Shown here piece by piece: positions 51,861-63,999 of a stretch of DNA of 64,000 nt (position 1 is its first letter; the number at the start of each line of letters is the position of its first letter). Both the position numbers and the translations under genes were made by a program. The stretch is from Candidatus Bathyarchaeota archaeon (GTDB taxonomy: Archaea; Thermoproteota; Bathyarchaeia; 40CM-2-53-6; RBG-13-38-9). The DNA is taken from positions 160,001 through 224,000 of the forward strand of contig CAWECG010000004.1 in the NCBI GenBank assembly GCA_963807605.1, in the 5' to 3' direction. Below the pieces are notes generated by a model. The model saw nothing but the letters and a program-made list of their open reading frames with translations, was not told the origin of the DNA and searched no databases.

Positions 51861-52946
51861 ATGCTTCAATTCAGAGATCGAACTACTGCGAACAGGATCC
51901 TTGAGCGGTTAGCATCGATGAAACTCAGCTTGACCCTGATGCATGTCTGCGGCACCCATCAAGACACGATCGTCCGCTACGGATTAGACGCGTTGCTTGA
52001 GAAATGCGGTGTGAACATAAGACAAGGCCCGGGATGCCCTGTCTGCGTAACCACGACCGCTGAGATTGAAGAAGTGGTTACGCTTGCTAGATGCGGGAAA
52101 GTCATAGCGACTTACGGGGATATGCTCCGGGTTCCAGGAGCCTCAGGATCTCTTGCGGATGCACGCTCGGAAGGTGCTAGGGTTAGAATTGTATATAGCA
52201 TTACAGATGCGGTGAAGATTGCTGAGCAGGCTGAGGATGAGGTAGTTTTTGTTGCTATAGGGTTTGAGACCACGGCTCCGAGTACCGCGGTGACCCTGCT
52301 TGGTGATCCTCCGAAGAACTTCTCCATAATCAGCTGCCACAGATATCTGCCTCCGGCTCTGGAGGCGTTGCTTGGTATGGGTGAACTCAAACTGCAAGGC
52401 ATCATAGAGCCCGGTCACGTCAGCACCATAATCGGGACAAGACCCTATGAGGAGATCTCCAAGAGGTACAAGCTACCCCAAGTCGTCGCAGGTTTCGAGC
52501 CATTGGATGTATTGATGGCTGTCTATATGATAGCGAGGCAGGTCCAAGCCTCCAAATCGATTGTTGAGAACGAGTACAAGAGGACCGTAAGAAAAGAAGG
52601 AAACCTCAAAGCTCTAGAAGTTATGTCACAAGTCTTTGAGCCTTCTGACTCGAAATGGCGGGGGTTCCCCACGATACCGGACTCCAGGATGAAATCGAAG
52701 AGCGAGTTTGCTTCATTCGATGCCGAAGAGAAGTATGCTGACGACTTGAAGGCGGTTCTTGAGAAGGATTTTGTTGAACCTGTGGGATGCGGTTGTGATA
52801 GAGTACTCAGAGGATTGATGGAACCACAGGAATGTGCCCTTTTTGGTAAGGCCTGTACTCCGGAGCATCCAGTTGGTCCATGCATGGTTTCGATGGAAGG
52901 TTCATGTAACATCGAATACAGATACCGAAGGGCAGGCCTAGTCTAG
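51861..52946 (+). CDS. hypD: Hydrogenase maturation protein HypD
   Basis: MHVCGTH, GPGCPVC, GFETT, PGHVS, GPCMVS.EG.C. Confidence 0.97.
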   Translation: MLQFRDRTTANRILERLASMKLSLTLMHVCGTHQDTIVRYGLDALLEKCGVNIRQGPGCPVCVTTTAEIEEVVTLARCGKVIATYGDMLRVPGASGSLADARSEGARVRIVYSITDAVKIAEQAEDEVVFVAIGFETTAPSTAVTLLGDPPKNFSIISCHRYLPPALEALLGMGELKLQGIIEPGHVSTIIGTRPYEEISKRYKLPQVVAGFEPLDVLMAVYMIARQVQASKSIVENEYKRTVRKEGNLKALEVMSQVFEPSDSKWRGFPTIPDSRMKSKSEFASFDAEEKYADDLKAVLEKDFVEPVGCGCDRVLRGLMEPQECALFGKACTPEHPVGPCMVSMEGSCNIEYRYRRAGLV

Positions 52947-53061
52947 ACTCATGGCCGGCGCTTCAAAACCTTTGGTCTCCCCGCCTAGCCGTGAAGGCTG
53001 AGATACAAGATTCATCATTTTTATATCTCTGCTGTTGTGTCAATCCTCAGCGGTGTTGCAC

Positions 53062-53556
53062 TTGGACGCACTGGAAGCAATACAAAAGCGAAGAAGCATT
53101 AGGAAGTACCGATCCACTCCTCTATCCAAAGAAATAATTGAGAAACTCGTAGACGCTGGAAGATTAGCTGCGTCAGCAGTCAATATTCAACCGTGGGAAT
53201 TCGTGGCAGTTACACGTCAGGAAACCCGCAGAAAAATAGCTGACGCAGCGGACTATGGCAAGCATATCGCTGAAGCACCCCTGTGCATCGCCGTATTCTG
53301 CAAGGAGACCCCATTCTATCTTGAAGATGGGAGTGCTGCAGTTGAGAATATCTTGGTTGCAGCAACCGCCCTTAACCTGGGGACCTGTTGGGTTGCCGGA
53401 GACAAGACGTCATACGCTAATACCATACGAGAACTCTTAGCAGTTCCCGAAGGCTACAAACTGGTCGCCCTTATCGCAGCAGGCTATTCTGATGAACCAG
53501 ATATCAGGAAGAAGAAACGCGAGCTGAAGGACGTACTACACTACGAGGAATTCTGA
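53062..53556 (+). CDS. Nitroreductase family protein
   Basis: RRSIRKY, A.SA.N.QPW.F, LGTCW. Confidence 0.9.
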   Translation: MDALEAIQKRRSIRKYRSTPLSKEIIEKLVDAGRLAASAVNIQPWEFVAVTRQETRRKIADAADYGKHIAEAPLCIAVFCKETPFYLEDGSAAVENILVAATALNLGTCWVAGDKTSYANTIRELLAVPEGYKLVALIAAGYSDEPDIRKKKRELKDVLHYEEF

Positions 53557-53589
53557 TATACCATCGTCACCACATTGACTGCCCACTTG

Positions 53590-53635
53590 ACACACCCCTG
53601 CCTAAAGCAGGGAGCCTTCTTGCTGAATTTGGTAA
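53590..53635 (+). mobile_element. Orphan IS200/IS605-type end hairpin (remnant)
   Basis: CACCCCTGCCTAAAGCAGGGAGCCTTC...TTGGTAA, with a CCCTGC/GCAGGG stem around CTAAA. Resembles IS200/IS605 subterminal hairpins; no tnpA or tnpB nearby. Confidence 0.5.
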
Positions 53636-53712
53636 GCGCGCTTGCTGTCTCTGGACTTGCAGATTTCTAGCGGCGTACGCATAGACGACTCAAGAACAAA
53701 TGGTGTTGACTC

Positions 53713-53925
53713 ATGGGTCAGTCCTTGAGTTTGGCGTTGAGGGGGGCTGTCGATGTCACCGCGGTACCTTCTGAGCTTCTTACGCAGTTGATTGCCGGGT
53801 TTGAAAGCGGAACTGGGATGGTTACTGTTGAAGCGTTTGTGGAGGGTATCCGCCGAGCATTCTACGTCTCAGGATTCATGGCGGCCTTAGGCATCTTAAC
53901 ATCGCTTGTCAGAGGCAGAGTATGA
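53713..53925 (+). pseudogene. C-terminal fragment of a DHA2-type MFS transporter
   Basis: GQSLSLAL...AFVEGIRRAFYVSGFMAALGILTSLVRG parallels the end of the MFS at 57891 (AFMSSLGFALYFNAALAVVAAAASVLRG). Confidence 0.65.
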
Positions 53926-53989
53926 TGATGCTCAGCTGCGCGGCGCTTTTAAATACTAATAGGCGTGACGGTTTTGATGGTGTCGGAGT

Positions 53990-54397
53990 ATGAAGATACT
54001 AGTGTCCATCGATACGTCAAAGGCTGCTAGGAAGGTTGTAGCCTTCTCATGCGGATTGGCTAAGAAGCTAGAGGCAAGAGTCACTATTCTTCATGTGATT
54101 ACAGTTCCTACAGGAGTCGCAGTCGGAGTAGATCCAACATCCTTTCTGAAGGCAGGTGAGGAGTATCTGGCCAATTTCAAGCGCCAGGCAGAGAAGTCTG
54201 GAGTCAGAGCATCTACGCGCCTGGAGACTGTTTACGGTAATCCTGCCCACAGGATTGTAGAATTGGCTAGGGATGAAAGATTCGATCTGATAGCATTAGG
54301 GGCTATGGGAGAGAGTGAACTGCGAGACCTTCTTCTGGGGAGCGTCGCACACACAGTGTCCAGAAACGCCTCATGTCCAGTCCTGATTGTCAGATAA
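53990..54397 (+). CDS. Universal stress protein
   Basis: KILVSID.S, ILHV, GNPA..I, LLLGSVA..V...A.CPVLIVR. Confidence 0.93.
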   Translation: MKILVSIDTSKAARKVVAFSCGLAKKLEARVTILHVITVPTGVAVGVDPTSFLKAGEEYLANFKRQAEKSGVRASTRLETVYGNPAHRIVELARDERFDLIALGAMGESELRDLLLGSVAHTVSRNASCPVLIVR

Positions 54398-54460
54398 GTC
54401 GTGCCTGAACTAACCAGCAGTAAAGGCGTGTGAGAAGCACTTTACTACGTATGAATCACA

Positions 54461-54562
54461 GTTCAAATTTAGGCGCTCTCACCAGCTACGACACACACAC
54501 AAAAAAAAGAATCAATGCCTAACGGTTCAAATTACGACGCTCTCACCAGCTAAGGTACACAC
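54461..54562 (+). repeat. Island repeat copies R1 (54461-54498) and R2 (54525-54562)
   Basis: GTTCAAATTTAGGCGCTCTCACCAGCTACGACACACAC and GTTCAAATTACGACGCTCTCACCAGCTAAGGTACACAC. Confidence 0.85.
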
Positions 54563-54676
54563 AGATTAAAACGATAACGCTTGTTTTCTGACTGAAGATA
54601 CGGAATGGTAATGACTGGCTCTGCGTCGAAGAATTCGACGCAAAACTGCAATGAACTTAACGTGAGTGGTTTAATC

Positions 54677-56303
54677 TTAGTGTAGTTTGGCGCCGCACTT
54701 TATGCAGAAGTCGTTGGCGTCGGGATTTTCTGTTCCGCATTTTCCGCAGTAAACCATTCCAGGTGTTAGGGGTGTTTTCGTTGGTTGGGTGGGGGTTGAT
54801 TTTCGTCGACTCCGCAACGCGACCACAATGATGACGACGGCCAACAAGACCATGCCTGCAAGTATGAGGAGTTGGTTTTGCTGGATCACACTCATCAGGT
54901 CGCTTGATGTTTGAGTTGAGGAGGTTGAGGTTTGCGTTGCTGTTGCTGCGTTAACTGCTAGGACTAGGTTGCCGACATGAGTTAATCCTCCTCCACTCCC
55001 GGTTACCGTCAACGTATACGAACCAGTTGGTACATCGCTTGGCAATGTAACCGTGAGCGTCGAAGCGAAGTTTGGAGTTCCGGAGGGACTGCTGAAGACT
55101 CCGCTGGCGCCCGAAGGCAATCCTGAGACGGACAATGAAACCTGCGAGTTGAAGCCGTTGAGGGCGGTAACGCTCACGGAGTACGATGTCGTCTGTCCCT
55201 GAAGCACACTCTGAGAGGGGGGACTCACACTAATTGCAAAATCAGGGGCAGCCGAAACGATGAGAGTTACGGAGGCTGTATGGGTTACCCCACCTCCACT
55301 CCCAACGATGGTTAGCGTGAACGTTCCAGGCGAGACTGAGGACGCCACAGTAACACTTAGTGCTGAAGTAAATGGAGGTGTTCCTGAGGTTGGGTTAAAT
55401 GACGCGGACACACCGCCGGTAACCCTGACACGCTGAGAGCAACACTCTGCTGTGGCCCTGTTACCGGGTTCACGGCGACAGTGTAGCTTGCGCTCCCACC
55501 AGGAGTGGCGCTCTGCTGGGTGGGTGAAGTGGATAATGAAAAATCAAATTGCGCTACCGGTTGCGTTGTCGTTGGTACTGCTGGTCCGACAGTGAACGTG
55601 GTGCTCATTACGTTATTGCTGGGGTTCGGATCGTTAATCGTCGAAACCGACCAGGTTAACGTGTGTGTTCCTAGCGTTGCCGAACCACGGCGTCTGCGTG
55701 TTTACACTAGCCGGGGTTGCCAGTTGGTCCAGGGTAGGAGAGGGAACCCCCTCCCCACGAAGCACCATCAATTGTGCATTCCACATTAACAATCTGCGGA
55801 TATGAACCCGATGTCGAGAGTGCAACAAACACCGCGCTGAAAGTTACGGAGTCACCAACTTGAGGGATAGAAGGAGTTAGTGAGACTGACTGGATCGCCC
55901 AGTCCGTAGATACAGATGCCGATCCAACCACTGAAAAAAGTTTCTCTCCTAACTCAGTAGAGCCTCCGCCTGTTTTCAAGAACGAGACTGCCGCAAAGTA
56001 ACTTCCCGGAGTGATTATTCCAGGGACATTCACCTCGTAGTCTAACCCACCACTGATGCTCATCGGTGAGGCCTCCCAGATGGGCGTAACGCTGAAAGTA
56101 GGCCGAACAAAAACAACGGCCTTGCCGTTATACCCTGGGTCAGTGTAAAACGAGATCACGAAGGGTAAACCAGCATGTATGGGAGCTCCTGGAACGCCTA
56201 CGTGAACGTGCAAAACCCCTTCTACATTCTGAAAGAGCATTACAGATGAGATAACAACCACAAGTAAGATTGCAATCGTCGATTTAGCTAGCAAACCTTC
56301 CAA
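54677..56303 (-). pseudogene. Surface protein (signal peptide, CARDB-like and Ig-like repeats, TM, zinc ribbon) split by three 1-nt indels (near 55717, 55684 and 55412)
   Basis: The frames join to give ...GTPASVNTQTPW/SATLGTHTLTWSVSTINDPNPSNN...VSGLPA/GVSASFNP...CGKCG...FCIKCG. Confidence 0.8.
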
Positions 56304-56425
56304 TTCTCGAGATTAAGTAGATAGGTCACGAAAGTATTTGAGGATTTACAAGTGTTCCTTTGATTCTCTGGGGAGGTGGATTGTAGGCCTAGTGGTGCGC
56401 ACACACAAAAAATTAAAGCCTGGCA

Positions 56426-56463
56426 GTCCAAAATAGGATGCTCTCATCAGCTAAGGCACACAC
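56426..56463 (+). repeat. Island repeat copy R3
   Basis: GTCCAAAATAGGATGCTCTCATCAGCTAAGGCACACAC. Confidence 0.8.
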
Positions 56464-56602
56464 AACACTCCCAAGATTTACCACTTACTACTACACAAAC
56501 AACGAATCCTATCCCAACTGATACCGAACGGAAAACAAGTTTAGCACGCCATAATCGCCGGTTTCTCCAATGTCGAAGGGTTTTGCCACGTTCTTTTGCA
56601 GA

Positions 56603-57463
56603 CTAGAGGATAGCGTTCGCAATGTGGGCTCTCTTCGGTCCGTGAAGACCGTCTCGGCGATCGCGGAAATATCGAGCATCAGCATCCGTAGCTGATAGGA
56701 ATGACGCTCTCGAAAAACCCAACCCTTGCAACTTTGAGACCAGGTCATTTGGCTCGAATCGCGTAAGCCATGGCTCACCCTGCGCTGCCGCAAGTGCAGC
56801 AGTCGAGTGCGAAGGTTCGGTGCTCGTTTCTTTCACCTCTGAAGTCGGAGAGGCGAAGTCAAAAATGATCTCGCTTGACCGTGGGAGTGAAGCTACGAAG
56901 CGGAATACGACATCAACCGTGCTCGTCCTTAGGTACATCATGACACCGAGCCACGAAAAAAATGCAGGCTTTCCAAAATCGAAACCACTGTTACCCAAAC
57001 GCTCACGTAGGGAGGTGGTCTCAAAATCAAGAGAAACAAACTCGACGTTAGATGGAGTTTCTATCCCCGCCAAGGTCAACCGTTCGCGTTTCGAGCGTTG
57101 GCTCGCCACATGGTCCACTTCGAAAATGCGCAACGTTGTCGCCCAATGAGGTTGTCGATAGGGGAACGAGTCTAGGCCAGCGCCCAACATCAAATACTGC
57201 CTAACCCCATTGCCGACCGCTTCAGCCAGAAGATCCTCCGCATACCGGCTGCGCAAAACGATGTGCGATCGTAGCCCTCTCATCCTCGACGTGCGAAATC
57301 TATTCGGATTCAAGCGAATTTGCTCGAGTATTGATGTGCGAAGGAGCTGAAGCACGATAGGATCATCGAGAACCCTTGGTTCGTCATCAATAAGTTGGTG
57401 AACCGCACGAAGCACCGCCGCACCCAACGCGGTACGGCTAGGACGACGTTCCATCACATGCAT
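56603..57463 (-). CDS. SAM-dependent methyltransferase, LCM/YktD family
   Basis: SRTA...A..RA.H, RSRYAED, LGAGLDS..YR, FEVDH, WLGVMMYL. Confidence 0.9.
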   Translation of the reverse strand: MHVMERRPSRTALGAAVLRAVHQLIDDEPRVLDDPIVLQLLRTSILEQIRLNPNRFRTSRMRGLRSHIVLRSRYAEDLLAEAVGNGVRQYLMLGAGLDSFPYRQPHWATTLRIFEVDHVASQRSKRERLTLAGIETPSNVEFVSLDFETTSLRERLGNSGFDFGKPAFFSWLGVMMYLRTSTVDVVFRFVASLPRSSEIIFDFASPTSEVKETSTEPSHSTAALAAAQGEPWLTRFEPNDLVSKLQGLGFSRASFLSATDADARYFRDRRDGLHGPKRAHIANAIL

Positions 57464-57610
57464 TCCGCCTCAAGAGCGGTGCAGAAATACTTCAACGTAA
57501 CAACTTCCGGATCTGAAGTCGCGAGCTACGCTAAAAGTCTTCGATACAGATCTCAAACATCATGAGGGAAAGAAGTTGGAGACACATATGATGTTGAACT
57601 CAACTCCAGT

Positions 57611-57700
57611 GTGTGTGCCTTGGCTGGTGAGAGCACCCAAAGTTGAACCATTAGATTTCTCCGTCGTTGGATCGCTTGGTGGGAGTATCGGGATTTGAAC
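57611..57700 (-). repeat. Island repeat copy R4 (57611-57648) and tRNA-3'-like copy R4b (57677-57700)
   Basis: Reverse complements GTTCAACTTTGGGTGCTCTCACCAGCCAAGGCACACAC and GTTCAAATCCCGATACTCCCACCA. Confidence 0.8.
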
Positions 57701-57890
57701 AGATGAAGAGAATCTATTGTTGCCTAGTTACAATCAAAGGTTCAGTCCCCGAAAATGTTGCAGAAACCAAAATCCTATCATAAAATTATGGAACCTTAAA
57801 ATAATCTACCTTGACACTTGCAGCAAGAACCCGTATTTCATGATCGAGGAACCAGCTTAGGAGCAAACATGAGGCCTGGGGAGAGGTTCA

Positions 57891-59633
57891 ATGGTTGAGT
57901 ACAAGTGGGTTGTTCTTTCGAACACTACACTCGGCACGTTGATGGCTTCAATAGACATCACTATAGTAGAGATTGCGCTTCCAGCCATCTTCAGAGGTAT
58001 CGCGATTGACCCGTTCACGTCCTTCGAATACTTGCTCTGGATACTCTTCGGCTACAGCATAGTAACTGCAACCCTACTCGTCACCTTCGGTCGAATATCA
58101 GACATCTTCGGCAGAGTGAAACTCTACAACCTGGGCTTCCTAGTGTACACTGTCGGCTCCGTGCTGCTCTACCTGACGCCTAACACTGGAAACTTGGGAG
58201 CCATTGAACTGATCTTATTCAGAATCGTCCAAGGAGTAGGAGGGGCCTTCCTATTCTCGAACAGCGCAGCGATCATTACCGATGCTTTTCCAGCAGAGGA
58301 GAGAGGCAAGGCATTGGGACTCAACCAGTTAGCTTTCCTCGGAGGCTCGTTTGTCGGGTTGGTGCTTGGTGGGGTACTGGCCGTCTATGACTGGCGATAC
58401 GTGTTCCTAATCAGCGTGCCATTCGGGGCTTTCGGGACAGCGTGGTCGTATTGGAAGTTGAAGGAGCTAGCAACCATACGAGAGGGGCAGAGGATCGATG
58501 TGTGGGGGAACATTACGTTTGGCGTGGGCTTGACGGTTTTCCTCATAGCGATAACCTATGGACTACTACCTTACGGCACCTCGACGATGGGATGGGGCAA
58601 CCCATGGGTAATAAGCGGCCTGATCTGTTCAGCTGCACTGCTAGTTGCATTTCCGTTCATCGAGACACGTGTTCAAGACCCAATGTTCCAGTTGCACCTT
58701 TTCAAGAGAAGAGCCTTTGCCGCGGGTAACTTCGCCGCTTTCCTAGCGTCTATTTCGAGAGGTGGGGTATCGCTACTCCTGATTATACTGCTGCAAGCGA
58801 TTTGGCTGCCGCTGCACGGCATCAATTATGAGGATACTCCTCTTTGGGCCGGGATCTACATGCTTCCGTTTACCGCGGGGTTCATAGTCATGGGCCCACT
58901 CAGCGGCTACCTCTCCGACAGGTATGGTGCGAGAGGCTTCTCGACTGCGGGCATGCTCACAACGGCAGTTGGGTACTACCTGCTTTCAACGTTCCCATAC
59001 AACTTTGCTTATCTTTCGTTCGCTGCGGTCATCTTCTTGATGGGAATCGGTATGGGTATGTTTGCTTCTCCGAATACAGCATCCGTAATGAACTCGGTGC
59101 CAGCCGAGCATAGAGGCTCCGCATCAGGAATGCGGAGCACCTTACAGAACACAGGTTCGGTCATAGGCCTTAGCATATTGTTTACGTTAGTTCTCTTGGT
59201 CTTATCGAGAGACATGCCTTCTTCACTTGCAGCAGCTGCCTCACAGGCTGGCGCCCCACAGTTATCCTCCGCGTTAACCCAGATTCCTCCAACAGCCGCA
59301 GTATTCGCGGCTTTTCTAGGCTACAACCCGATGGGCACGGTACTGAAGCAGCTTCCTTCGAAACTTACGAACTCATTGAGCCCGCAGGCGATCGCAGTGG
59401 TCACCGGAAAAGTGTGGTTCCCAACAGCGATCGCTAACGCATTCATGTCATCCCTAGGATTTGCTCTGTACTTTAACGCGGCATTAGCTGTTGTGGCTGC
59501 CGCCGCATCAGTGCTTCGCGGGAAGAGATATGTTTACGGGACGGGAGATGAAAAGCTGGAAATAGCTACACCAATAGTGAAGACTTCTAAAAGGGCAGAC
59601 CCGTTGCCTAACTCAGAAAGTCGCCCAAAATGA
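57891..59633 (+). CDS. MFS transporter, DHA2 (14-TMS) type
   Basis: D.TIV.IALP, GRISDIFGR, RIVQGVG, FP.EERGKALG, SDRYGAR. Confidence 0.93.
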   Translation: MVEYKWVVLSNTTLGTLMASIDITIVEIALPAIFRGIAIDPFTSFEYLLWILFGYSIVTATLLVTFGRISDIFGRVKLYNLGFLVYTVGSVLLYLTPNTGNLGAIELILFRIVQGVGGAFLFSNSAAIITDAFPAEERGKALGLNQLAFLGGSFVGLVLGGVLAVYDWRYVFLISVPFGAFGTAWSYWKLKELATIREGQRIDVWGNITFGVGLTVFLIAITYGLLPYGTSTMGWGNPWVISGLICSAALLVAFPFIETRVQDPMFQLHLFKRRAFAAGNFAAFLASISRGGVSLLLIILLQAIWLPLHGINYEDTPLWAGIYMLPFTAGFIVMGPLSGYLSDRYGARGFSTAGMLTTAVGYYLLSTFPYNFAYLSFAAVIFLMGIGMGMFASPNTASVMNSVPAEHRGSASGMRSTLQNTGSVIGLSILFTLVLLVLSRDMPSSLAAAASQAGAPQLSSALTQIPPTAAVFAAFLGYNPMGTVLKQLPSKLTNSLSPQAIAVVTGKVWFPTAIANAFMSSLGFALYFNAALAVVAAAASVLRGKRYVYGTGDEKLEIATPIVKTSKRADPLPNSESRPK

Positions 59634-59729
59634 CTCTAGACTAAAACAGAAACCGGAAGCAAGGCTCAGAAGAACTCCAAGTGAGACCTAGCACGCGCTT
59701 CTATTCACTTTACAGTTCTGAGGATCTAT

Positions 59730-59880
59730 GTGGAGACAAAACAGTTCAAGCGGATACAGGTGGCTGTTAATGGCTTCGAGAACGCCACTCGCGCAGCCAG
59801 GGTTGCCATTGCGTTAGCAAAGAAGTTCGGAGCGTAACTCATTGTATGCCATATCATTCCAACGCCAGTCTACTCTGCTC
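59730..59880 (+). pseudogene. Universal stress protein N-terminal remnant with in-frame stop
   Basis: VETKQFKRIQVAVNGFENATRAARVAIALAKKFGA*LIVCHIIPTP, with TAA at 59835-59837. Confidence 0.7.
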
Positions 59881-60160
59881 AAACAGTTTTCACCGTTCCA
59901 AGTGACACAATGCGAGGCTTACGGATCGAACCGATTTGCGGAGACGTTGGAAAGGCTAACTTGGTAGACACAAATGAAAATATGGCATCTAACTGTGCAT
60001 TCTATGCCTGGGAACTGGCTTGTTGAAACCAACGCCACACGCTCTGTTTGTCCGACTTCGTTGAGGAACACAATATAGCACGCGTGTTTCTAGATAAATG
60101 AGTTGAGTGAATCGCTAACGTTTAATAGCGTGCATGTTGAGCACAGCGGCAGTGAATGAT

Positions 60161-60412
60161 ATGCTAAAATGGGAATATTGCAGATTGTCCCTTCATGGTC
60201 AGAAGCCGATAACTGCCAAAGCAGTGTATTACAAAGCAGATGGAAAGCACACTGTGGACATCTCTGAAGGTGTGGACGCTGATGACGTAAGAAGCTCTGC
60301 CGCAGCCTACATGGCGAAAATGGGCGTTGAGGGTTGGGAGCTGGTGAGTGCTTCCGACACTATTGGGGCATTGGAGATAGTTTTCTATTTCAAGCGTCCA
60401 CTTGAAAGTTAA
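60161..60412 (+). CDS. DUF4177-like small protein
   Basis: KWEY...MG.EGWELVS...FYFKRP. Confidence 0.8.
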   Translation: MLKWEYCRLSLHGQKPITAKAVYYKADGKHTVDISEGVDADDVRSSAAAYMAKMGVEGWELVSASDTIGALEIVFYFKRPLES

Positions 60413-60452
60413 CAAGCCATACTATTTGGTAGTGGTGCCATATCTGGTTAGC

Positions 60453-60522
60453 GTGTGTGCCCTTTGGTGAGAGCACCATAATTTGAACTGTTAGACAGTT
60501 GTGTGTGCTCATCAGATAAGGT
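60453..60522 (-). repeat. Island repeat copy R5 (60453-60488, - strand) plus fused half-site (60501-60522)
   Basis: Reverse complement GTTCAAATTATGGTGCTCTCACCAAAGGGCACACAC, then GTGTGT-GCTCATCAGATAAGGT on the + strand. Confidence 0.78.
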
Positions 60523-60885
60523 CCAATCAAGCTGTTTTCTGGGGCTAATATGAGAGTGTCTGGGCTAGGGCAAGGGACTATGGGTCAGACATATGGGGAT
60601 AGTTGGATACAACGATATTCTCCGTATTACTATACTTCCCTTACGTTGTGCTGCTCTAGTAGTATTCAACATAGGTAATTGGAATAGTACGTCTCAAGAC
60701 TACTCTAGTACTATTCCCTGGGCTATCCCCCATTATCCCTCTGGCACAAATGACATTATCCCCCGTTATCCCAAGATCTCTGGTACATTGTCCTTTCTTA
60801 GGTGACCTATGGACCGTGGAATTGAGGAAGTTCTACGAGAATTACTGAGCTTGGCAGGAAAGAAGCCCCTATCCAATGATGACTT

Positions 60886-60910
60886 GCGCTCACCAGATAA
60901 GGTACGCACA
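60886..60910 (+). repeat. Island repeat right half-site R6
   Basis: GCGCTCACCAGATAAGGTACGCACA, compared with R2 CTCACCAGCTAAGGTACACAC. Confidence 0.7.
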
Positions 60911-61305
60911 AAAATAGTCTACTCTAACCTTAGCTAGTGAGCACACATGCACAAAACCGTTCATTACGTTGGGAAAAGAATTCCGCGAACTCCTTCTTTG
61001 TTTTACGAATGGCTCGCTGCGCTTGGAGAATGCTACGAAAAAGAAGTGTCTTAGGAAGTCTAGAGAGATGGAGAAGGAGGTTTTGTCTAGTCTTTGGTTT
61101 CTCACTTGACAACTACGACTAGTGATGCGACTGCGACTAGTCCTGCCTAGGCATACGGAGCTGTTCTGATCAGAACCGGAGGTTTTGTTTGATATCCTAG
61201 GAGGCAAACATTACTTCGGGATTTAGGAGACCGAGAGGGTCAAAGAACGATCTCTGAAGCTTTCGTAGCCTTCGTCACCCCACTCATTCCTAGCGGGCGC
61301 TGGCT

Positions 61306-61890
61306 CTACCGCTTGAGCTTCTCCCAGTAATACTTGCGCAACTTGGCGACTTTTGGCTCGATGACTATCCGGCAGTAAGACTGTTCAGGATTCTTTTCGA
61401 AGTAATCCTGGTGGTAACCCTCGGCCCTGTAAAATGCCTTGAACGGCTCGACTTGGGTCACTATGGATGAATCCCAGACTCCTGTGCTATTGATTTCCTT
61501 GATGACCTGCTCAGCGATTGCCTTCTGTTCGTCGCTATGGTAGAAAATCACTGAACGATATTGAGAGCCCACGTCGTTACCTTGACGGTTTAGCGTAGTT
61601 GGATCATGCACAGTGAAAAAGATCTGCAAGATTTCCCTAAAGGAGATTACATTAGGGTCGAAGGTGATTTGTACGGCCTCCGCATGTCCTGTTCTCCCCG
61701 TACATACTTGTTCATAAGTCGGATTCACGACTATACCGCCAGAATAACCCAACTCTACTTTCTCCACACCATTCAACTGATTGAAAACAGCTTCTGTGCA
61801 CCAGAAGCAGCCACCACCAAGCGTTGCCACTTCCATGCCTCTGCGAGAAGCGATCTTCAATCGTTCTTGGATCATAATGCCACTATCCAT
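61306..61890 (-). CDS. msrA: Peptide methionine sulfoxide reductase A (start may be ATG 61836)
   Basis: [35 protein letters not shown]. Confidence 0.96.
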
Positions 61891-62929
61891 TTGTCAATAG
61901 CGTCCTTGCAGTTGTTACACGACGGGACTGAGTATTAGATGTGTTCGCTCGTTTTGCATCACGCCTCTTCCTTGTCATTACGCTTACGAATACAACCGCG
62001 GCCACTCCAACTAATGCTAGATAAGGTGTCAATTCTGATGGGACGTGGAAGCCATGGTCCTGTATCTTGATTTGATTTCTTATTCTAGAGATCAAACCGT
62101 CATTGTAGATCAAAAGTGTGAGGGCGGTTGTCTCTGCATTGGCTGATCCGATAGGTTCACCATGTCCAGTGCTTAGGGTGGTGATTCCCCCGTTGGCCTG
62201 TTGCTTGCTCCAGAGAACCTCTTCGAGCTTTTCAAAGTCCGGTAGGTATGTCCCTGTGACTTTGACTGCGTACAATAGTAGAGCAAGTTTGAAGTTAAGT
62301 CCGAAGCCGATGTCTGAGGGAGCGTTGTTAGGCCAGAGGAATTGTTGTCGAACTCCAGAATCTACGAGACACGTGCCGTTCCACATGCCGTAGACTTCTC
62401 TGACTAGGGCTTGTGCTTCTGTTTCCTGTCCCCTGTAATACTTGGAGAGCGCTTCACAGAGCATGTTGTCTGCGTACTTGAAGAAGGGATTTCCGAGTGT
62501 CCCGTTGTGGATCCTGATGAGAATCGCATAGTCTTCAGTTTGTTTGATTATGATATCTTGAGCCTGCGTAGCCGATCCTACCGGGTAACCCAAGATCGCT
62601 TCAAAATGGTTGCTTGGTGGAAGATCATATGAGTTAATGGTTCCATTGACCTTCTTAGAGATCTCCGGAGCGTAGGGTTGGAGTGCGTAAGCTGCAAGCA
62701 GATTGTCTGAGTAAAGCCAGAAGGTCCGCTGATAACTGCAGTTATAGTTCGGATACTCAACTCGCCTTAGCCAATGAACTCCCTTATCTTCGCTCTCATA
62801 GATCAAGCCAACTTGAGGGTTGTAATGGCTGACCAGATAGTCGACTGCGCGATGGATGCGGCTGTCGCTATTAGATGTCACAGGTGAGCCTACTGAGGTC
62901 AGCAGAAGAATCAGTACAAGAAATCTCAT
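61883..62929 (-). CDS. Secreted, membrane-anchored hypothetical protein (possibly alpha/alpha toroid)
   Basis: Signal peptide, W..Q..NGG, NAETTAL, C-terminal TM. Confidence 0.75.
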
Positions 62930-62967
62930 AACAAGACGCAGCGAGACATCTCACAGTCCTTTGTCTG

Positions 62968-63999
62968 CTAGCAAATTCTTGGTACTGGATCCCCGATAGG
63001 TGGAAGTATGATTCTTCTTCCTCCGACAGATGTCTGAAGGATGACTTGGTTGAGCTCACTCGAAACCTCGCCAATGATCGCAGCGTCTTTGCCGAGTTTT
63101 GATTTTTTGAGGGTTTCCAGAATCTCATCCGCCTTCTCTTTAATCACCGCCACGGCGAGTTTTCCCTCGTTTCCAATCTCCAAGGGGTCTATGCCCAGCA
63201 TTTCACACGCTGCCCTGACACCAGTTTTTATGGGAATATCTTCCTCTTTGATCATGATGCCGACATGTGATTTCTCGCGCCACTCATTCAATGTGTTGGC
63301 CAATCCGCCTCGTGTTGGGTCTTTTGCCTTCACTACACCCCCGACTTGAAGGAGATCTTTCACGAGTTTGTTCAGTGGTGCTACATCAGATTTCACGTCG
63401 GTCTCGAATCCGTAACCTTCCCTAGATGAGAGTACACTTATTCCGTGATCTCCAATCGTTCCTGAGATGATTATCTTATCCCCTGGAGCAAGGTTTGAGT
63501 CAAGAAGCCATCTGGAACTAAAACGTCGGTGCTTCTTTACTTCTTCAATATTCCTATCAAGCTCAGGGATACGCTTTCCAATCCCTGATGTGTTCATTAC
63601 GAGCTGGTCTAGTGCGCCTTTCTCCATTACTTTTGTATCGCCGGTTAGAACGTAGACTTCTGCTTCTTGGCAGGCCTCATGCATACTATCAAGTATGCGT
63701 TCAAAATCTTCAAGCGGAAAGCCTTCTTCGATGATGAAGCCTGATGTTAGGGCCAGCGGCTCGGCGCCCATGACTGCTATGTCATTGACTGTTCCTGTTA
63801 TGGCCAGTCTGCCGATATCTCCCCCTGGAAAGAATAGAGGCTTGACCGTGTGAGAGTCTGACTTTAGAACAATATCGTCTATCACGGCGGAGTCATCAAG
63901 CGCCTCTAAAGGGACCTCAGCACCGCTGCCTCCGAGGTATTTGAGAATATATTCTTTAATCAGTCCCTGCATGACAGCGCCCCCTCCGCCGTGTGACAT
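62968..63999 (-). CDS. hypE: Hydrogenase maturation protein HypE (N-terminus probably beyond the window)
   Basis: HGGGG, DSHTV.PLFFPGGDIG, GTVND, GDTKV, DPTRGG, NEG, C-terminal PRIC. Confidence 0.96.
   Translation of the reverse strand: MSHGGGGAVMQGLIKEYILKYLGGSGAEVPLEALDDSAVIDDIVLKSDSHTVKPLFFPGGDIGRLAITGTVNDIAVMGAEPLALTSGFIIEEGFPLEDFERILDSMHEACQEAEVYVLTGDTKVMEKGALDQLVMNTSGIGKRIPELDRNIEEVKKHRRFSSRWLLDSNLAPGDKIIISGTIGDHGISVLSSREGYGFETDVKSDVAPLNKLVKDLLQVGGVVKAKDPTRGGLANTLNEWREKSHVGIMIKEEDIPIKTGVRAACEMLGIDPLEIGNEGKLAVAVIKEKADEILETLKKSKLGKDAAIIGEVSSELNQVILQTSVGGRRIILPPIGDPVPRIC

Follow-up and report, generated by a model that had tools for sequence, protein, structure and literature searches.

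The window analyzed here is a 64,000-nt stretch from the genome of a Candidatus Bathyarchaeota archaeon, an archaeal assembly of 2.65 Mb in five contigs with intron-rich tRNAs. A 9.4-kb accessory island in this window (53557 to 62967) splits a hydrogenase maturation neighborhood (51861 to 63999), with hypD and a nitroreductase gene on one side and hypE on the other. These three genes are the island's backbone. The island carries several copies of a short repeat that resembles the 3′ end of a tRNA. We describe the anatomy of this repeat, the family to which it belongs in the genome and in the order, and its relation to elements that encode the integrase Cas1.

A first-pass annotation of the sequence had placed 24-nt copies of the repeat at 54461, 54525, and 56426 on the plus strand and at 57648, 57700, and 60488 on the minus strand, and we located all six at these positions. 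Each has the geometry of a tRNA 3′ end, 24 nt from a G53-like base to CCA, as the annotation had stated. A dinucleotide-preserving shuffle predicts 0.08 matches to the 24-nt motif where 6 were found, and the right-hand part of the repeat, which is also present in 4 of the 24-nt copies, is expected 0.00 times. The consensus over all genomic copies is ctAacg-GTTCAAATt..GaTGCTCTCACCA-gcta.g.-(CA)n. We divided it into three parts: D (17 nt), T14 (14 nt), and a simple-repeat tip. D has the form GTTCAAWT-N6-GCT, that is, a T-loop-like octamer, six variable bases, and GCT. T14 is the 14 nt directly after D and starts with CTCACCA. The two right half-sites of the earlier annotation are 14-mers without D, at 60508 to 60521 and 60889 to 60902, and we found three additional 14-mers in inverted orientation at 56386 to 56399, 60438 to 60451, and 60928 to 60941. 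The copies lie between genes, as described before, save the one at 60889, which cuts a 42-codon open reading frame (ORF) starting at 60809. Their orientation relative to neighboring genes is inconsistent. The features of the island are as follows.

53557 to 62967 (no strand): accessory island, 9.4 kb, between the nitroreductase gene (53035 to 53556) and hypE (62968 to 63999)
54461 to 54491 (+): R1, with D at 54461 to 54477 and T14 at 54478 to 54491
54492 to 54555 (+): D-unit R2, with a (CA)n tip and A-rich spacer at 54492 to 54524, D at 54525 to 54541, and T14 at 54542 to 54555
54677 to 56303 (−): surface-protein-like cargo, three ORFs (244, 83, and 198 amino acids [aa]) on one strand
56386 to 56456 (D-unit, +): inverted T14 at 56386 to 56399, then D-unit R3, with a CA tip and spacer at 56400 to 56425, D at 56426 to 56442, and T14 at 56443 to 56456
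56457 to 60507 (no strand): composite element X, 4,051 bp, with a 10-nt inverted tip at each end
56457 to 57617 (−): methyltransferase cassette body, with a CA tip, an LCM-family gene (56603 to 57463), and a GT tip
57618 to 57669 (−), within 57618 to 57700: R4, with a tip and spacer at 57649 to 57669, D at 57632 to 57648, and T14 at 57618 to 57631
57670 to 57700 (−), within 57618 to 57700: R4b, an older, more tRNA-like D at 57684 to 57700 with its own 14-mer at 57670 to 57683
57891 to 59633 (+): MFS transporter gene, the first of three cargo features within X (57891 to 60412)
59730 to 60023 (+): USP remnant, cargo within X, with an in-frame TAA after 35 codons
60134 to 60412 (+): unnamed 92-aa ORF, cargo within X
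60458 to 60507 (−), within 60438 to 60507: right end of X, with a CA tip and spacer at 60489 to 60507, the R5 D at 60472 to 60488, and T14 at 60458 to 60471
60438 to 60457 (−), beyond the R5 T14: 6-nt CA-like filler at 60452 to 60457, then a second T14-like 14-mer at 60438 to 60451
60508 to 60521 (+): distal copy of the 14-mer that flanks X
60522 to 60888 (+): ~370-nt repeated segment, with a promoter-like region and codons 1 to 26 of a gene
60889 to 60953 (no strand): R6, with T14 at 60889 to 60902 and a truncated D-unit head at 60903 to 60927, then an inverted T14 at 60928 to 60941 and the CA tip of the next element at 60942 to 60953

In a genome of the same genus, ~150 bp separate the nitroreductase gene from hypE. 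The gap is 1.5 to 1.8 kb in most other relatives and 7.5 kb in one; none of these gaps has D sites, and the inserts in these other relatives are unrelated to the island. Because the gap is short in relatives or is filled with unrelated inserts that lack D, we regard 53557 to 62967 as lineage specific. Close to the island's left border (53636 to 53641), G and C alternate in a short run, and the same-genus genome has a GCGTGCGCGCAC run at the corresponding position of its short intergenic space (L016, 1366 to 1377).

The earlier annotation noticed no copies outside the island. This is correct for the 64-kb window, which contains no further copies, but not for the genome, where we found 78 matches to the 24-mer, 74 of them not in tRNAs. 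We counted ~148 junctions in which T14 is preceded by a tip or D and followed by a tip, with ~19 clusters of at least three sites. Two main classes of T14 14-mer occur, and a tip can be (CA)n, (CGA)n, (CCA)n, or an end of the GGGGATAT type. At 30 of the 74 D sites, D lies 8 to 40 nt inside a tip that abuts another 14-mer, which gives the layout tip-spacer-D-T14; at 7 further D sites, only the tip is present. The D copies are concentrated in accessory islands and are not spread upstream or downstream of conserved genes. Of 15 other genomes in the window's taxonomic family, 10 have the exact pattern. In other families of the order a CGCACCA variant takes its place, which our pattern missed, so that the scan showed the repeat in the window's family only.

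The sites are not detectable as tRNA genes, though their 24-nt geometry is that of a tRNA 3′ end. ARAGORN found no tRNA gene in the window. A comparison of the 24-mers with host tRNAs, proposed in the first-pass annotation, gave no source for D: every host tRNA found has at least 6 mismatches over 22 specified positions, and the 5′ partner of the T-stem is missing. An RNA family identity was rejected, as Rfam gave no match in the window. Five of the six sites fold no better than shuffled sequence, with no consistent hairpin, which counts against both attC and REP models.

There is no Cas1 gene in the window. Elsewhere in the genome we found one intact gene, on another contig (contig 3, 803495 to 804703; 402 aa; PF01867, E value of 3e-49), and five fragments. 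Four of these six Cas1 loci lie within 2 kb of a junction site, compared with 12% of random places. When Cas1 was compared with solved relatives, the Methanosarcina mazei casposase (6OPM) was the best match, over its full length (E value of 6e-72); the best CRISPR Cas1 gave 4e-25. No Cas2 was found in the genome. The intact Cas1 gene sits in a 9.0-kb element with a D site on one side and (CGA)n inverted tips at both ends. The element is flanked by an exact 14-bp duplication of a variant that occurs at just 3 of 148 sites. Its other genes encode a SIR2-like protein, an archaeal ATPase with a helix-turn-helix (HTH) domain, a DUF5677 protein, and unknowns.

As replicates we used 20 loci around full-length Cas1 homologues in other genomes of the order. 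Five more Cas1 elements, in other genomes that include other families, have a D site beside them, end in inverted tips, and are flanked by an exact 14-bp duplication. Cas1 elements are thus known from six genomes in total and are 7 to 11 kb long. Four elements without Cas1 (1.3, 1.9, 5.6, and 6.2 kb) have the same exact 14-bp duplications. Exact 14-mer pairs made up 10 of 82 comparisons within a locus on the same strand and 19 of 1,833 between loci. The variable half of T14 differs from locus to locus among the Cas1 elements, and the elements end in short simple repeats, (CA)n, (CGA)n, or (CCG)n, in inverted orientation. Because the flanks are identical at each locus and different between loci, they point to a staggered cut with fill-in and not to a shared att core. 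The largest ORFs of the six Cas1 elements encode DUF4365 and TIR-domain proteins, and NT5C is also among the cargo. The closest homologue of the intact Cas1 is 82% identical and comes from a different taxonomic family, whereas housekeeping genes of the same-genus genome are only ~73% identical in DNA. We therefore take the element to move horizontally. Together with the anatomy of the sites, these data suggest that the repeat is probably the signature left at targets and junctions by a family of casposon-like transposons of Bathyarchaeia that encode Cas1 and lack PolB.

Within the window, element X is the sole element with a flanking duplication. Its 14-mers at 56443 to 56456 and 60508 to 60521 are identical at 13 of 14 positions, and both have a rare T at position 5; by a hand count of the site list, this CTCATCA variant occurs at 3 of 107 sites of its 14-mer class. 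The tips of X are inverted, one at each end, and identical at 10 of 10 positions. Its right end is the inward-facing D-unit R5. On the minus strand, X contains R4b, followed by a tip, spacer, D (R4), 14-mer, CA tip, methyltransferase gene, and GT tip, and this last tip doubles as the left end of X. An unrelated pair of sites on another contig also spans 4,051 bp; BLAST found no homology between the two, so we treated the shared length as chance.

The methyltransferase gene belongs to the LCM family (PF04072, E value of 8.5e-45). A search of the 15 other genomes in the window's taxonomic family did not find it. We found it at 66 to 70% identity in three genomes of another family (G072, G074, and G077), always bounded by tips and 14-mers. 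In G072, the cassette reads tip, spacer, D, inner 14-mer, CA tip, gene, GT tip, the same order as in the R4-methyltransferase unit of the window. An exact outer duplication surrounds the whole of the G072 D-unit and gene, and the inner 14-mer has no second copy. The G074 gene lies between convergent sites, like R3 and R4 in the window. In G077, a genuine-looking tRNA 3′ end lies ~70 nt from the cassette (L053, 1260 to 1400) and possibly exemplifies the ancestral target, a real tRNA. The earlier claim that the sites bracket mobile gene modules is borne out by the absence of the island from relatives and by the recurrence of the methyltransferase as a bounded cassette.

For the remaining cargo, Pfam gave less. 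The surface-protein-like block has a single match, a C-terminal zinc ribbon; the gene is split into three ORFs and is probably decaying. The USP-like frame has a weak match (E value of 0.0014) and looks decayed, and the DUF4177 assignment made earlier for 60134 to 60412 was not confirmed. The ~370-nt segment has two other copies in the genome (contig 3, 982895 to 983293 and 647161 to 647514; 88% identity). All three copies end at the same codon, cut by a 14-mer in either orientation. Six CA-like bases separate two different 14-mers at 60452 to 60457 in the window and at ~85314 to 85334 on contig 4. An excision could have left this spacing as its footprint; a solo tip and an abortive integration are other possible origins.

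According to the model that we propose, D mimics positions 53 to 69 of a tRNA and would serve as a docking segment. T14, which begins with the last bases of the mimic, CTCACCA, would be cut with a 14-bp stagger and duplicated upon insertion. The (CA)n, (CGA)n, (CCA)n, or GGGGATAT-type run that follows T14 would then be the short inverted tip of the element. Many elements have a D-T14 copy ~25 to 40 nt inside one end. For a composite element, a body would insert beside a D-unit, and the integrase would pair the outer tip of the D-unit with the far tip of the body. Every insertion would thereby supply a new landing pad. The island would be a stack of Cas1-less cargo elements and remnants, presumably mobilized by the casposase encoded on another contig. 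As the window has neither a Cas1 nor a tyrosine recombinase gene, any enzyme must act in trans; the first-pass annotation had likewise placed the recombinase outside the window. An element bearing a D-unit that inserted at R1 would leave just the arrangement seen, R1 followed by D-unit R2. In the model, R3 and R4 face each other because of the orientation in which the composite element inserted, and no invertase is needed. The anatomy of the sites, the exact duplications around elements with and without Cas1 in several genomes, and the lack of the island in relatives are observations; we infer catalysis by Cas1, mobilization of Cas1-less elements in trans, and the pairing of tips in composite formation.

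Several results weigh against this model. None of the six Cas1 elements encodes PolB or has an ORF of more than 605 aa, and the two PolB genes of the genome are far from the Cas1 loci. The elements thus lack one defining feature of casposons. The genome has five tyrosine recombinase genes, and two of them are beside D sites. We expected the outer borders of the island at D/T14 sites and did not find them there. The surface-protein block, the ~370-nt repeat, and the PMSR block have flanks that do not match, as do most modules of the window; we read modules of this kind as older, truncated, or rearranged pieces. In the genome-wide pairing of 14-mers, nearest-neighbor flank concordance gave no signal (P = 0.26). 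Taking the best partner within 25 kb gave 14 near-matches compared with 9.2 expected (P = 0.036), and exact pairs were at chance level. The genome-wide flank test is weak because the 14-mers here are too uniform and the elements too nested. In this genome, an exact duplication of a rare variant is found only at the Cas1 element. Synteny comparison with relatives also gave no filled-versus-empty site for the genes for the 92-aa ORF and PMSR.

The first-pass annotation had favored an integron- or shufflon-like system, in which site-specific recombination between tRNA-derived sites, by a tyrosine recombinase supplied in trans, swaps cassettes, adds or removes them, or turns them around. Sites in both orientations do bound modules, and most flanking 14-mers differ, as in hybrid sites. 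Its suggestion to look for a linked tyrosine recombinase was partly fruitful, in that two of the five genes adjoin D sites (contig 1, 288226 to 288994, and contig 2, 55941 to 57427; one is broken), but there is no such gene in the window and no match among the element ORFs scanned with Pfam. Integrase-type elements may thus make use of these tRNA-like sites or share them, a situation reported in Methanosarcina. Ten elements have exact, locus-specific 14-bp duplications, whereas an att-type core would be constant; six of the elements carry Cas1, and element ends have inverted tips. The tyrosine integrase att mechanism is therefore not supported. The sites also lack attC-like hairpins, and the insertion orientation accounts for the R3/R4 pair, which leaves recombination and inversion of the integron or shufflon type quite unlikely.

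A plain att scar, that is, the 3′ half of a real tRNA gene left by serial integration of ordinary integrative elements, would have exactly the geometry observed. R4b (57677 to 57700) looks closer to a true tRNA end than the other copies do, and the G077 cassette lies near a real one. The mismatches to all host tRNAs found and the missing T-stem partner argue against such scars, as does the fact that ~74 copies share one acceptor-like sequence, many of them inside repeated element ends. We consider this explanation highly improbable. Mosaic repeats of the REP/BIME or MITE type would have nothing to do with Cas1; a transposase (IS-type or RAYT-like) would have spread them, or they would persist because they signal transcription or termination. 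Such repeats would also be short, modular, intergenic, in mixed orientation, and in many copies, and the repeats are often at the contig ends of relatives. The weak flank concordance within the genome fits this explanation too. It is nevertheless very unlikely, since the repeats have no palindrome, hairpin, or Rfam match, cluster in accessory islands with no consistent orientation to the genes of the window, and exactly bound the Cas1 elements of six genomes. What decides among these explanations is the exact duplications around Cas1 in other genomes, and we return to the casposon-like reading.

A broader proposal is that Bathyarchaeia have a Cas1-run gene capture platform that picks up decoy tRNA ends, builds self-extending cassette arrays, and exchanges cassettes across families. 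Casposon relatives without a polymerase, and single-gene derivatives of them that lack Cas1, would insert beside a decoy tRNA 3′ end and acquire that decoy when the tips of adjacent elements are paired, so that one insertion prepares the site for another. We advance this tentatively, as a possibility that is somewhat less likely to be right than wrong. If true, the platform would be a functional analogue of the integron driven by a CRISPR-type integrase, and it would show in living organisms the arrangement of leader and duplicated unit from which CRISPR arrays are proposed to have originated. The literature searched contains no report of casposons in Bathyarchaeia. Casposons described in the literature surveyed have a DNA polymerase, are large, and occupy one or a few sites per genome. 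In contrast, the casposase clade here is tied to polymerase-less elements, ~150 junctions per genome, element-borne decoy tRNA ends, and small cassettes, one of which, the methyltransferase, is common to separate families. If confirmed, these findings would widen the range of natural roles of Cas1 integrases and account for much of the accessory gene layout in a major uncultured archaeal group. They would also provide a concrete system for asking how a docking segment and a duplicated unit might have become the CRISPR leader and repeat.

Previous work defined the minimal target of the Aciduliprofundum boonei casposon as a 15-bp duplicated segment preceded by 18 bp that contain the T-loop of tRNA-Pro (PMC5137440). 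The duplication of M. mazei casposons is 14 bp, starts with 5′-CGCA, and overlaps the end of tRNA-Leu; upstream tRNA sequence is required, tandem elements have a single duplication in common, and elements are found in either orientation (PMC4779613, PMC6977970). A DNA polymerase is invariably present in casposons, according to a review (PMC6452270). By analogy, the D/T14 layout is of the same design as these published targets.

One close likeness is to the Family 2 casposons of M. mazei, at tRNA-Leu or IR1 sites. They share with the elements described here a Cas1-type integrase, of which 6OPM is the best solved relative, a 14-bp duplication whose first bases overlap a tRNA or tRNA-like end, an upstream tRNA or tRNA-like sequence, tandem elements, and both orientations; their 5′-CGCA matches the CGCACCA variant of related families. 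In contrast, we saw no PolB, HNH, or usual HTH gene set here. The targets are tRNA mimics, often carried by the elements, and not real tRNA genes; there are ~150 junctions per genome; and many elements are single genes without Cas1. The tips are short simple repeats, much shorter than the terminal inverted repeats of described casposons. The two-part target of AciBoo-C1, the A. boonei casposon at tRNA-Pro, is also similar, with ~18 bp and 14 to 15 bp there and a 17-nt D and a 14-mer here. Overlap with the tRNA-like end amounts to 7 nt in our sites and 5 nt in A. boonei. AciBoo-C1 further differs from our elements in that these are found in Bathyarchaeia, have no polymerase, and carry cargo that is defense-like (SIR2, TIR, DUF4365) or metabolic.

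Integrons, with IntI, attI, and attC, resemble the arrays described here in that mostly single-gene cassettes lie between short recurring sites, the platform gains cassettes at a defined site, and its enzyme is able to act on cassettes in trans. Unlike IntI, however, Cas1 is not a tyrosine recombinase, and here the sites are unfolded, insertion duplicates 14 bp, cassettes have inverted tips, and there is no common promoter or uniform orientation. The CRISPR leader-repeat junction used by Cas1-Cas2 differs in that no Cas2 or effector genes were found here and in that the "spacers" are conserved element ends or whole genes rather than captured foreign fragments. It shares with the D/T14 sites a docking segment beside a unit that is duplicated at each integration, and tandem D-units resemble a short array.

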